DNA from: Octopus sinensis
Lineage: Eukaryota
Length of the DNA: 64,000 bases
Assembly: GCF_006345805.1 (NCBI RefSeq)
Contig: NC_043012.1
Span: 1 to 64,000 of the forward strand
Direction: 5' to 3'
This document shows, in pieces, positions 53,918-59,869 of this stretch. A program made the translations under genes and the position numbers. Numbering within the stretch: position 1 is the stretch's first letter; every line of letters starts with the position of its first letter. The notes beneath the pieces are model-generated. The model saw only the letters and a program-made list of their open reading frames with translations. It was not told where the DNA came from and did no database searches.

Positions 53918-55206
53918 CCAGGGTGGGCAGAAAATTTCAGAGGCTGACTATAAAAGAGTGACACTAGAGCTGTGAAATCCTCCATGCATTAATTTCAACT
54001 CCTCTTATTAATAACTGCATTTTATTCTTCCCAGCTAAAGTGATGTCTGGCTGTACAAAGAAGACTACAATAGAACTTGTAGTGACTTCAGTTGAAATAT
54101 TTGGCATCTACATCGTGTTGTTATGAAGTGCCTGGAAAACGGGGTTTAACCCCACCAACACCCTTCGTACTGATATGGTTGCTACATTACAAGACAACAC
54201 TCCAGCTTTATTAGTGGGCAGCTGAATTTAGGTGGGCAATGGTGAGTCTTGAAGATGACCCAAAGTCTAGATGTTCTGCAACTGCCATCTCCGAGGAAAA
54301 CATTGATCGTGTTCACCACATGGTGATGGATGACAGGTGATTGACAAAAAATGAAATAGCCAATGCTATTAGAATATCCCTTGAGAGAGTTGCGAAATCA
54401 CTGCACAGTGAACTTAGCATGACGAAGGTGTTGAATCGGCGAGTGCCACGTCTTCTGGTACCTGATCAAAGGTGCACCAGACTAATCCCATCATGGGAAA
54501 TCTGGCATTGTCTAAGTCAGATACAAGTGGTTTCCTTGAACCTATCCTAGCCTAGGATGAGCATTGAGTTTATGACTTTGAGCTGGAGACAAAGAAACAG
54601 TCTTTGCAGTGGAATCACTCTTCCACACCTGTTCCAAAGAAGACCAAGATTGTTTCATCTGCATGTATGGTGATGGCCTCAGTTTTTTGGGATGCAAAAA
54701 ACTTTGTGTTTATTGACTATCTTCAAAAAGGCTACATCATCAATGTGAGTTTACTATGATAAATTCTTCAGAACGTTATGAAACTTAGTAAAGACCAAAT
54801 GCTCAGGAAAACTGATAAAAGGGGTCTTGTTTCATCAGGACAATGCTCCAACAAACAAGGCCTTGGTTTCAATGGCTGCTGTGCATGACTGTTGATGTAA
54901 ACGAGTTGATAACCCGCCCCATTCTCTCGATTTGGTTCCATATTTCTATCATTCCCATTATGCTAACCATTATGAATAAAGACTTGGCTGGGAACCAATA
55001 CCGCAGTGATGGTGACATCATATCTGTTGTTGAGGATTTTTTTACCAGCATGATGAAAGCCCCTTCATCAACAGGACCCGAGTAGTGCAACACCCATGGA
55101 AATAATGTGTGGGCTACCAGGAGGAATATGTTGAAAAATATACCTCATTTGGTCACATTCCATGTGAGTATCTTGGTAGGTCTATGTAATTTACAGCCGA
55201 CCTTAC
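53918..55206 (+). mobile_element. Old, decayed full-length mariner
   Basis: Remnants SLEDDPKS, EENIDRVHHMVMDDR, RVPRLL, VMASVFWDAK and LFHQDNAP; degenerate TIRs AGGGTGGGCAGAAAATTTCAGAGGC / GTCTATGTAATTTACAGCCGACCT; ~1.29 kb. Confidence 0.88.
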
Positions 55207-55619: not shown

Positions 55620-55980
55620 TTTCTTACTAGTTTCAGTAATTTGAAAATCTCCCTGCTGGAGCACCTCTCTGAAACTTCTTAGTCGAAAAACATCGACCAC
55701 AGTACTTGTTTTTAAAGTGTGGGACTCTGTCTATCGGCTTCTTTTGTTGAACCACTAAGTTACGGAGCTTCAAACTAAAAAATAAAAAAAGCAACAAGAT
55801 CTGTTTTCATGCGATGTGTGCGTATGCGCGCGATTTGAATATAGACACAAAAACATTTTACGACTGGTTCCCCACACAGTTTCTGTTTTCTGTATTCACT
55901 TACGAGGTATTAGTCGCCACAACACTTCAGAAGAAGACACCCAAGGCACTGAGCAATAGTACTGAACACGAAACGACATA
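55620..55980 (-). mobile_element. SINE family C, highly degenerate
   Basis: Contains GCTGGAGCACC..TAGTCGAA..ATCGACC..GAAGACAC. Confidence 0.6.
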
Positions 55981-56120
55981 CAATTCTATATAAGGACTTC
56001 TTTATTTCCAGTATTTACATTTAACGGATATTTGTCTTCATCTTAGATTCGACTCTTCAGCATTCATCAGGTATTCCTAAAGTATTTTCCGATTTTATTA
56101 TTATTATTATTATTATTATT

Positions 56121-56188
56121 CACTTCCGAATCGAACTCGGAATCTTGGGGCTAGTAGTCCGCGCTCTTAACCACTACGCCATATGCCC
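56121..56188 (-). promoter_or_regulatory. tRNA-like Pol III internal promoter within the pseudo-LTR (mirror copy at 57548-57618, +)
   Basis: A box TGGCGTAGTGG and B box GAGTTCGATTC (GAGTTCGACTCC in the second copy), with an anticodon-like arm between them. Confidence 0.7.
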
Positions 56189-56217
56189 GTGGGCAATTAT
56201 GGAGTGAATTTTAGGGC

Positions 56218-57450
56218 TTATAAATCTAATATTTTTCTATCCTTCCTTAATACTGGTTCCCATATGCTATTCATATCTGCACTCAGTCTGCTTAGAAGGT
56301 TGTGTTCTAGCATACATGCTGCTTCTTTTAGTTTTCGTATTTTCCAGTGGTGGTCTCTGTCTATTATTTTAAATTCATCCCACAGGAGGAGGTGATGTCC
56401 ATTTTTCCATATATGATCAGCTACACCTCGTGTTACAGTTTTGCTAAATTCATCTACCCTTATTTTGAGGGGGCGGCATGTTTCGCCTTTGTATTACCCA
56501 CCACAGCTGCAAGGGATGGGGGTACACGCAGTCTTTCGTAATATTCTATTCTATTGGTAATTTTTACCCGAAGGAGATATTTGCGAAGTGTTGTATTACT
56601 CTTGAGTACTGTCCTGATGTCATATGGGCCGCACATCTTTTGTATCTTTTCGGAGAGGCCGTTCAGATTGAGTAGACAGACAGTGGACAGTTTATTGGTT
56701 TCTTCCGCTCTTTTCGTCATACCTGGAATGGATAGTATGTTTTTGGGGTAGTTGTGCTTAACAGATTGTTATTGAGCTTGATCATTTCTTTGTGGTGTGA
56801 ATCTCGATCGCTACGTATATTCTTTGCTCGATGTTTTAGGCAATGAATAAACCCCCTCTTTACACTGTATGGATGGTTGGAATTGAAGTTGATGTATCGT
56901 CCAGTAAAGTTCGGCTTGCGGTATACGGATGTCCTGAATCCATACATGGTGCGTGTTATTAATACGTCCAGGAATGCTAGCTGATTGTCATTTTCCTTTT
57001 CCATTGTGAACTGTATGGATGGCTTTATTGAGTTCACATGATCTAACAACGCTTGTACACTGGTGGGGCCAGTATATGAAGGTGTCATCAACATATCGCA
57101 ACCATAGGGTTGGTTTTAGTGGTGTTGATCCTAAAGCCAAATTCTCAAAGTATTCCATATATATATTGGTTATTATCGGTGATAATGGCGAACCTATAGC
57201 TAAACCCTCTTCTTGTCGATATATATCTGTGTCCATACTGACGTAGGTAGTTTCTACACTGAAGGTCAATATTTCCACCATGTTTATTATTCGTATACTT
57301 GTGCGTTCTTTTAGATGGATGTCTGTCACGAGTTTTTCTTGAATCACCGATAGTGCTTCACCAGTTGGAACTTTGGTAAGCAGACTTATCGCAGCTAAAC
57401 TCACCATCTAGTTGGATTCAATGAGGTTATCCTTGATCAATTCTGTGAAA
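56218..57450 (-). pseudogene. Penelope reverse transcriptase + GIY-YIG endonuclease (frameshifted)
   Basis: SLLTKVP, GLAIGSPLSPIITNIYMEYFE, WLRYVDDTF, IQFTMEKE..LAFLDVLI, VYRKP, SNHP and CVY.IPCSCG..YKGETCRPLKIR. Confidence 0.92.
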
Positions 57451-57619
57451 TGGAAAAGGAAAAAGGCAATCATATGGGAACCGGTATTAAGGAAGGATAG
57501 GAGAATATTAGATATATAAGCCCTAAAATCCACTCCATAATTGCCCACGGCATATGACGTGGTTAAGTGCACGGGTTACTAACCCCATGATTCCGAGTTC
57601 GACTCCTGGCAGTGACCTC

Positions 57620-57675
<56 letters not shown>

Positions 57676-57729
57676 CAACAACAACAACAATATCTTAGGA
57701 ATGAGAACCCAGGTTCGAAATTTCCCCAA

Positions 57730-57778
57730 GACACCTGATGAATGATGGGGGGGGGTATATCAGCCGAAACGTTCTGTT
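57730..57778 (+). ncRNA. Type I hammerhead motif in the Penelope pseudo-LTR (partly decayed)
   Basis: GACAC-CTGATGA-..-CAGCC-GAAAC-GTT-CTGTT; sister copies supply GCTG (56057-56062) and GTGTT (~37883). Confidence 0.7.
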
Positions 57779-58498
57779 AACAACAAACAAGACGAGGACA
57801 AATATCCGTCAAATGTAAATAATGTAAATAATATATATTCTTTTATTTGGTTCAGTCATTTGATTGCGGCCATGCTGAAGCACCGCCTTTTGTCGAACAA
57901 ATCGACCCCAGGACTTACTCATTGTACGCCTAATACTTTGTAAGTTCTCGTCTCCTAGTACCATAGACACTCAGTTCCGCGTCTCGTTCTCCTAATCCCT
58001 TGCTATTACCCTCCTTCACATCATTCCCAATTAAAACCTTTGAGTAAATTTACTGACACAGTGAAGCTACTCACATTGTTAATCGTTGTAAAACTGCGGA
58101 TTTCTCTTTTAGAGAGCTGACGAAGAGTTATGTGCCCTTGTTTGTGTTCTTTCTTTTTTAGTTATTTGATTTGTTTTTTCGTTAAATGTTTCACGATCTT
58201 TCACTACAATACAAAGAATATCCCTCTCACTACAATACAAAGAATATCCCTTGTTGATTATCGCTTCACAGCTTCTTCTTTCTCAGACGTCTCGCTTCTT
58301 TGTCCATATTTTTCTTGTCTTTGACTCCAGTTTTCCATCTATTTCTTGCTCTCTCTCTCTCTCTCTCTCACTCACACTTCTCTCTCTCTCTCTCTTTCTC
58401 CTCTGTTTTATTTTTCTTACCCTTTGTTTTCATTATAGTCTTTTCTTCAATGTATTGTGTGTATATATACATATATATATATATACATACATACATAT

Positions 58499-59095: not shown

Positions 59096-59624
59096 TGTGT
59101 GTGTGTGTGTGTATGTGTGTGTTTCCTTATGAATATGTATACATTTATATAAATATGTAAATATTATAATGATGTTGAAAATTTAATTTGGCATTACGGC
59201 GCTTATTCATTATTTAATAATAGTAATAAAAAAGATCGTAGTATGGAGTCGGTGTAATGTTGGAGGCCATAAATAGACAGACGGTGTTTATCTGAGGGAC
59301 ACAATGGCAACGGTTAAACAAACAGCAGTGTTCATATCAGGTGATAACTATGGGACAGATTTTAAAATTTTTTTGTAGGGTAGTTACAGAAAACTGTAAG
59401 CGATTTAGATAACTTAGTCCATCATCTCGAGTCGTGTATATACCAGTAGGCTGCAATCTGAGGTAGTGGCAAATACTCTCTCAAAATGCCGGGTGTTAAA
59501 ACGCCTGAAGGCCATAACTTACCGGCAAATACAAGCATATTATGCTTTAAGTATATGTGGTTGACAATGTACAATGTTTATTATAGTAGCACTACTTCTA
59601 CTTTATATTTAAACAAATATATAT

Positions 59625-59833
59625 AATGTGACCTCGTGTGTACCGATGACGATTTTTTTCCTCCGTCTTCCCTTCTTTGGATCTTTCCTTTTCCTATGTT
59701 TCTGACGAAGAGCTCCGCTCGAAACGTTAAGCTCTCCTTTTTTCTTTCTTTCCTGAGCGTCCAATAACACTATACTTGTTCCACGTCCTCGGGTTGTTGT
59801 GTTTTCTCTTTGTGTTTTCATGTTTGGATTAAC
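59625..59833 (+). mobile_element. Short hammerhead-bearing element, intact core
   Basis: Homolog of 29347-29556; ends TTTGGATTAAC followed by (TA)n. Confidence 0.82.
59698..59732 (+). ncRNA. Minimal type I hammerhead ribozyme motif
   Basis: GTTT-CTGACGA-A-GAGC-TCC-GCTC-GAAAC-GTT-AAGC. Confidence 0.78.
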
Positions 59834-59869
59834 TATATATATATATATATTATATATATATATATTTAC

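Follow-up and report, generated by a model that had tools for sequence, protein, structure and literature searches.

Copies of a Penelope-like element (PLE) family in the genome of Octopus sinensis open with a tRNA-like head, and their 5′ ends pile up at a sharp edge directly in front of it. The explanation we favor, at a probability of roughly 0.55 on the sequence data, is that RNA polymerase III (Pol III) starts an RNA at this head and that the element's own reverse transcriptase (RT), by internal priming, yields short copies. We infer that the 5′ edge is the RNA start, that the polymerase is Pol III, that the short copies are run-off products, and that inverted pairs are often formed by fold-back at the RNA end.

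The family is represented by an insertion in the 64,000-nt stretch that was analysed (contig NC_043012.1, positions 1 to 64,000; hereafter the window). The insertion is 5′-truncated and consists of two opposed arms, the left on the minus strand and the right on the plus strand (Table 1). The ORF remnant of the left arm is 90% identical to the family majority and is interrupted by frameshifts and stops, with its tblastn pieces in three frames. In the right arm, the A box carries one substitution and a 3-nt deletion, and the hammerhead motif pairs at 3/5 positions in stem II and 4/5 in stem I, where the family majority pairs at 5/5 and 5/5. The copy at 55979-57832 is a dead, inverted insertion that is unlikely to be functional, and the question therefore concerns the family rather than the locus. 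An earlier note on this DNA had read both repeats as stop, tRNA-like unit, (AAT)n and hammerhead. That order stands for the right arm, but in the left arm the CAGCC-GAAAC-GTT half is deleted, so it is wrong that both repeats end in a hammerhead. The same note's solo microsatellite-plus-hammerhead remnant at 37815-37980 is a real remnant of the family, but the CTGATGA half is missing and there is no tRNA head. The whole motif is thus present in the right arm only, and damaged, while the left arm and the solo remnant are without a complete core. A match of Rfam Hammerhead_1 on the deleted left arm (E 8.5) was too weak to be accepted as a real ribozyme. Elsewhere in the window we observed a full-length 5S rRNA match (46575-46693, minus strand, 98.7 bits), a non-LTR retrotransposon copy with long RT-bearing frames (4775-8343, plus strand), and a transposase-like frame of 297 aa (31721-32614, plus strand), which we take to be of the mariner type, with a decayed similar stretch at about 54100-55150.

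Table 1. Parts of the Penelope-like insertion, and a solo remnant of the same family, in the window.
Feature	Positions	Strand	Description
Left arm overall	57453 to 55979	-	RT-endonuclease remnant, stop, spacer, tRNA-like head, (AAT)8, half hammerhead, tail
Left-arm ORF remnant, 5′-truncated	56218..57453	-	RT motifs through C-terminal endonuclease region (family-protein residues ~417-835)
Left-arm ORF end, head, microsatellite, CTGATGA stretch	56266-55979	-	A and B boxes intact; (AAT)8 and CTGATGA present
Left-arm 5-bp palindrome	56184..56195	-	Spans putative start site (56195) and tRNA +1 (56188); from the family 5′-end edge
Left-arm tRNA-derived head	56120..56188	-	A box 56181-56171 intact, B box 56136-56128 intact; 3′ end of head deleted
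Left-arm (AAT)8, half hammerhead, decayed long 3′ tail	55979..56119	-	CTGATGA 56070-56064; CAGCC-GAAAC-GTT half deleted
Inversion-junction filler	57454..57470	+	Short piece matching an internal ORF stretch in opposite orientation; 24-nt match, 91.7% to ORF body
Right arm overall	57471-57832	+	71 nt of ORF end and spacer, head, (AAT)17(AAC)6, hammerhead motif, shorter 3′ end
Right-arm last ORF codons, stop (57517-57519), 22-nt spacer	57471..57541	+	95.8% to family majority
Right-arm equivalent of the family 5′-end edge (putative start site)	57542..57548	+	Palindrome one base short in the locus copy
Right-arm tRNA-derived head	57549..57619	+	A box damaged (57555-57562); B box intact (57597-57605)
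(AAT)17(AAC)6 microsatellite	57620..57688	+	Belongs to the following unit's 5′ leader
First in-frame ATG of the family ORF (putative start codon)	57701..57703	+	835-codon frame open in family majority; stop-free natural frames 391-401 aa (L331, L338)
Minimal type I hammerhead motif within ORF start	57730..57778	+	CTGATGA 57735-57741; GAAAC-GTT 57766-57773; predicted cut after 57773
ORF codons past the cut	57779..57832	+	Reach the shorter one of the two 3′ ends seen in the family
Solo family remnant	37800..37980	+	Leader end, ORF start without CTGATGA core, long 3′ tail, without tRNA head; 75.6% identity, E 6e-38

At loci carrying the N-terminus of the ORF, the tail passes directly into coding sequence, forming tandem junctions. 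The family-majority unit of 2649 nt comprises a 7-nt leader, the head, (AAT)n, an ATG, the hammerhead, an 835-codon frame, a stop and a 22-nt spacer, followed by the next head; its first in-frame ATG is at position 120, CTGATGA at 154, and the cut falls after 189. Taken together, the junctions and the majority unit show that the head and (AAT)n lead the unit downstream of them as its 5′ leader and that the hammerhead, which sits within the first 25 codons, is coding sequence. Natural copies contain stop-free frames of 391-401 residues across the inferred start, and a short upstream ATG-stop is located inside the head. The earlier suggestion of a Pol III cassette driving tandem copies would fit this anatomy because the head and (AAT)n are the 5′ leader of the downstream ORF. 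The idea of a separate SINE-like hammerhead module fails; the hammerhead instead lies within the first ORF codons, as in PAc of the anole.

By its architecture the family is a canonical Penelope-like element. A single 835-codon ORF encodes an RT followed by a C-terminal endonuclease, and the pseudo-LTR (pLTR) organization is seen in partial tandem junctions, inverted 5′ arms and two clusters of 3′ ends; judged by the architecture, membership of the Penelope/Poseidon clade is probable. Pfam RVT_1 scored above cut-off on a sister copy. The C-terminal pattern CVY..GET.R / R..EH / H / KEA is presumably a GIY-YIG-type endonuclease motif, and homologues are labelled GIY-YIG by their sources, with one homologous protein labelled as coming from an octopus; the Pfam GIY-YIG model gave no match in two endonuclease-bearing copies. 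A PDB search returned just a marginal match to a group II intron-like RT. Two metagenome scans yielded no related loci, and the best 30 loci in a search with a distant PLE protein all belonged to the same family. Some family loci (e.g. L310, L330-L345) carry a 9-nt repeat ahead of the tail that varies in number and preserves the frame. In others (e.g. L096, L110, L216, L249, L251) other repeats frequently break into the (AAT)n leader, after which the copy ends, and L327 has a very GC-rich insert of ~160 nt, unlike host composition, just before the ORF start.

The head is a fixed component of the family. Exact patterns matched the genome 1929 times for a hammerhead 34-mer, 4128 times for a head 30-mer (CpG decay allowed) and 540 times for a stop/spacer 30-mer, and the reversed control of each pattern had 0 matches, so these are not chance patterns. 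Among copies sampled without reference to the head, the ORF continued into it in 29/29 chosen by the ORF end (with a query that extended to the first bases of the palindrome discussed below) and, where the stop was reached, in 21/23 chosen by the distant protein and 17/18 chosen by RT DNA. These counts establish the tRNA-like unit across the family, as the earlier note had wished to see checked, and a one-off SINE insertion at this locus is rejected. Contigs of four runs under four organism codes also bridged the junction between ORF and head. In the arms examined the head always leads into the family's own (AAT)n, with the ORF start next in 83/95; the remaining 12 break off in or shortly past the microsatellite. 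No free-standing SINE with the family head, and no other SINE body after the head, occurred among these arms. The head is therefore not part of a non-coding unit independent of an ORF-bearing element, since copies chosen by the ORF end carry the same head.

Over its whole length the head can be aligned to tRNA genes of the genome, 35 distinct sequences representing 7 isotypes. Alignment z scores against shuffles were 7.8 (Arg, best), 7.2 (Cys) and 6.8 (Ala), with no single parent isotype singled out. The A and B boxes, 45 nt apart as in tRNAs, are both intact in the family majority. Judged by this spacing and by the end-to-end alignment to genomic tRNA genes, the head is tRNA-derived. ARAGORN predicted 0 tRNA genes in the window, and the head had no Rfam tRNA match and no cloverleaf of the kind that defines a tRNA gene; SINE heads usually keep A and B boxes without a detectable cloverleaf. 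A phage search gave a chance-level tRNA match only (E 2).

In family coordinates, tRNA +1 is at 391, the A box at 398, a 5-bp palindrome at 384-395 and the 5′ edge at ~384. The 5′ ends were sampled with an anchor inside the head, in genome order, giving 95 arms from the first 100 matches listed. Fifty ends fell at 383-395, 25 at 396-424 and 20 further upstream; there were 10 at 384 and 9 at 391, positions that the palindrome renders partly ambiguous, and none at 373-382. When each of 89 loci was counted once, 47 of the 66 at risk ended in 383-395 and 19 passed the edge. The rate of ends was 0.096 per nt at 383-395 vs. 0.0015-0.0086 per nt in the upstream bins, and 0.018 per nt at 396-407. The edge is sharp and precedes tRNA +1 by 7 nt and the A box by 14 nt. 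A second, independent sample was anchored on the hammerhead and drew on 94 of the first 100 matches, among them two pairs of near-duplicates; once one rearranged, one spurious and one low-scoring alignment had been dropped, it had 22 ends at 374-395 vs. 7 further upstream. Across the genome the head pattern outnumbers the stop/spacer pattern, located only 40-70 nt upstream of it, by 4128 to 540, and loose contig ends were found at the same edge in 3/4 other runs. Three copies (L330-L332) begin at the head and extend 0.6-1.2 kb into the ORF, while three other copies bearing the N-terminus run through the head into the upstream ORF end; the 16 long 5′-end loci included no complete head-to-tail element. 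Since 19/66 loci and both arms of the window insertion pass the edge, RNAs spanning the head exist. The edge corresponds to 57542 in the right arm, with which the RNA start near 57548 proposed in the earlier note would be compatible. RNA-seq data from a related organism (three raw runs) and one contig set had balanced strands and no start or end sites, as is expected anyway from embedded copies in an unstranded library, and they count neither in favor of a start at the head nor against it. Among the sequence records that carry the family, none was listed as RNA.

A pile-up of this kind could also be produced by RT stalling or folding back at the palindrome and the tRNA-like structure. The head would then be a passenger captured once, and the RNA would come from Pol II read-through or another promoter. 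Fold-back junctions at 384-395 are indeed frequent among the copies, with the loop in either orientation and with short palindromic extensions. Few stretches of the element are predicted to fold as stably as the 40-nt RNA window across the edge (-13.4 kcal/mol); a single region is clearly stronger, and it had 4 copies at risk. The end rate is already raised at 396-407, and 19/66 loci pass the site. The palindrome has a predicted DNA energy of -2.6 kcal/mol, which is equalled or exceeded at 24/2909 positions. However, eight comparable or stronger fold-back hairpins in the ORF (-2.5 to -6.0 kcal/mol) stopped 6/112 at-risk passages, the same copies being counted at successive sites, and 2/28 long-copy ends lay at hairpins vs. 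a background of 6.5%. Fold-back alone thus does not explain the 71% at the head, although for RNA structure the hairpins are a less powerful control, given how stable the window across the head is and how few copies (4) met the stronger region. The sharpness of the edge on its upstream side, the intact A and B boxes and the absence of T4 runs likewise argue against stalling, which we consider unlikely. Still less credible is a long transcript cut at the head by RNase P or similar processing; we regard such an origin of the 5′ end as highly improbable. A second mode of ends at tRNA +1 (9/95 arms at 391) would suit it, but the outer edge lies 7 nt upstream of +1, no tRNA fold was detected in the head, and several of the ends at 391 belong to fold-back arms in which the loop departs from the reference.

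The terminator content of the unit bears on a possible start at the head by Pol III. Type 2 Pol III units start 10-20 nt before the A box and have no T4 inside. The sense strand of the 2649-nt unit contains 0 T4 runs and 31 A4 runs. Zero T4 was obtained in 461/10000 synonymous-codon shuffles (P = 0.046) and in 191/3000 dinucleotide shuffles (0.064), so that the absence of T4 is compatible with Pol III read-through, at a borderline level; G4 is likewise absent from the sense strand, as in 2923/10000 shuffles. For comparison, the non-LTR retrotransposon copy in the window, which is of similar T content and served as T-run control, has 10 T4 in 3569 nt, the mariner copy has 6 in 894 nt, and aged copies of the same PLE family have 19 in 30450 nt. 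The distant-PLE search, which might have supplied a second Penelope family as control, gave this family alone in its best 30 loci.

The pile-up reveals an RNA end, not a polymerase, and Pol II could start the RNA at the head through an internal promoter, as happens in Penelope of Drosophila virilis, with the tRNA boxes incidental or binding only TFIIIC. Pol III RNA is normally uncapped, and a cap would solve translation. The PLE promoters that have been studied lie in the pLTR and, as far as the accessible text of these reports goes, resemble TATA-less LINE promoters (PMC2377424, PMC8557442). These same sources describe internal LINE-like promoters and a 5′-UTR intron for D. virilis Penelope and Chlamys-3, whereas the octopus family has a tRNA head and an (AAT)n leader and needs no intron because its frame is open from the first ATG. 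Together with a putative start that precedes a consensus A box by 14 nt, a B box located 45 nt further along and a sense strand without T4, this makes Pol II initiation quite improbable in our estimation.

The 3′ ends were scored in the head-anchored sample (95 of the first 100 listed head-pattern matches, leaving out five in previously fetched loci) and not in the hammerhead-anchored one, because the pattern of the latter spans the cut. Among 83 arms with a body, 1 stopped short of the cut, 2 ended no more than 5 nt away from it and 1 at +38; 40 ended at +40 to +70 and 39 at +71 to +100. Thus 79/83 end 40-100 nt beyond the cut, and they form two clusters, at +50-64 and +78-97, about 30 nt apart, that correspond to two PLE tail ends. 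With 2/83 ends at the cut against 79/83 beyond it, a cleavage-ended RNA is not the retroposed form, and the short RNA ended by self-cleavage at 57773 that the earlier note had envisaged is contradicted as the mobile form.

Some observations would suit a short Pol III RNA ended by hammerhead cleavage and mobile as a SINE-like or retrozyme-like form. Short head-bearing copies exceed ORF-linked ones about 5- to 8-fold. Their median microsatellite lengths (48.5 and 41 nt) are greater than in ORF-linked copies (26 nt; Mann-Whitney p = 0.038), which allows for separate short source loci, and schistosome Sm-alpha is described as a Pol III SINE with an active hammerhead (PMC6765202). Besides the 3′ ends, the sampled loci speak against this form in that none holds a tandem array of the short unit; of the marks of non-LTR retrozymes and Sm-alpha, arrays are absent from these loci and ends at the cut are confined to 2/83 arms. 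Monomeric minimal hammerheads are reported to have failed to cleave in vitro (PMC4209133), and insertion of PAc, by the available account, did not require cleavage (PMC11167929). We hold this form to be very unlikely. Short copies acting as uncleaved SINE-like sources are, on the other hand, compatible with a Pol III start combined with internal priming.

In the family majority the hammerhead combines the core with stems I and II of 5 bp each; a single extra base precedes stem II, and stem III is without a loop. It is a minimal type I hammerhead, fully paired in 13/78 sampled arms, with the architecture described in the accessible text of PMC4209133. Cleavage is predicted to require either a dimer or the assistance of protein. 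Two linked sets of variants occur among family loci L181-L269, one of which replaces the base at the core's free N7 position and thereby turns a D codon into an E codon; in the unbiased sample 0/15 arms with the N7 variant were ORF-linked, and ORF-bearing copies with it do exist. A second, unrelated T-rich repeat of ~215 nt with a minimal hammerhead motif lies in (TA)n at 59620-59835 (plus strand) of the window. It has no tRNA head and no ORF nearby, is represented by 1561 first-look candidates, the best copies being 90-94% alike, and is possibly a non-autonomous PLE derivative. At 58105-58125 (plus strand) the word CTGACGAAGAG resembles the core of this second hammerhead family, without the 3′ half.

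In our preferred explanation, Pol III would initiate at the head and transcribe into the ORF, whose sense strand is without a T4 terminator. Internal priming by the element's RT would follow at two sites in the tail, in the way demonstrated for PAc. When primed in the first repeat, the RT would run off the RNA at its 5′ end once about 250-330 nt had been copied, and thousands of short head-to-tail copies would result; when primed in a downstream repeat, it would produce long copies with random truncations, of which the left arm is an example. In many cases, cDNA extended to the RNA 5′ end would fold back on itself at the terminal palindrome, generating inverted pairs. Hammerhead cleavage would take away the start codon rather than define the mobile RNA.

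A further step is more speculative, and we regard it as doubtful: an autonomous coding retrotransposon transcribed wholly by Pol III from a captured tRNA promoter. Its terminator-free RNA of 2.6 kb or more would serve both as template and, through the unstructured (AAT)n leader, as uncapped mRNA, with the hammerhead in the first codons switching the message off. Against Pol III, in the preferred explanation as well, stand the short upstream ATG-stop in the head and the uncapped state that is normal for its RNA. Kojima (2024), moreover, takes the view that autonomous LTR elements are bound to Pol II on account of the weak processivity of Pol III (PMC10886601, as far as its accessible text goes). 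A distant PLE protein, P0050, which is 44% identical to that of the family, hints that the tRNA-head design is not confined to the host group. The residues of its read-through tail are compatible with a coding sequence that includes an A box and, at a distance of 49 nt, a B box; the pair would lie 100 nt past the conserved C-terminal motif, where the octopus family has about 84 nt. These boxes, derived from the protein only and noticed by eye in 1 of 28 tails scanned, had chance rates of 3/2000 shuffles and 3/843 windows.

Among the closest described systems is PAc of Anolis carolinensis, a Poseidon element. In the available description its ORF begins in the hammerhead, its RT primes at two internal sites, which explains the tail, and its cleavage requires protein and is dispensable for insertion (PMC11167929). 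The octopus family shares with it the single ORF of RT and C-terminal endonuclease, the partial tandems, the inverted 5′ arms, the hammerhead overlapping the ORF start, the two 3′ ends about 30 nt apart and the ATT-rich sequence after the ORF-pLTR junction. Unlike PAc as described there, the octopus unit opens with a tRNA-derived block at which 5′ ends pile up. As regards the putative promoter, the nearest analogues, TRIMp3 and Sm-alpha, encode no protein. TRIMp3 elements (Cassandra, Helenus, Ajax) have a Pol III promoter within the terminal repeat, which is 5S- or tRNA-derived and is proposed to stem from a SINE insertion into the repeat, but these are, in the text available, short non-coding LTR elements (PMC10886601), whereas the octopus family is a PLE with an 835-codon ORF. 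Schistosome Sm-alpha and Sj-alpha likewise combine a tRNA-related Pol III unit with a type I hammerhead, and are portrayed as non-coding, ribozyme-processed tandem repeats (PMC6765202, PMC2770079); in the octopus family the hammerhead is coding and copy ends ignore the cut. Animal non-LTR retrozymes have hammerhead sequences related to those of PLE pLTRs and many solo copies, as in the octopus family, but according to the accessible part of that report they are tandem repeats with a hammerhead per unit (10.64898/2026.07.22.740005), whereas the octopus short copies are solo or inverted and end at PLE tail sites. In the open literature we found neither a PLE whose promoter derives from a tRNA nor an autonomous element driven by Pol III; subscription journals, Repbase or Dfam could hold the family.

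Pol III promoters are known from non-coding parasites such as SINEs and Cassandra-type TRIMs, and coding retroelements are described, in the text available, as Pol II transcripts (PMC10886601). A PLE opening with a promoter of tRNA origin would blur this divide between SINEs and autonomous elements, and thousands of SINE-looking hammerhead repeats would be accounted for as run-off copies of a coding element's RNA. Two questions about PLEs, where the RNA starts and whether inverted arms form by fold-back at the RNA 5′ end, become testable at base resolution. Should Pol III prove to make the full-length RNA, this would be a long Pol III mRNA that occurs in nature.
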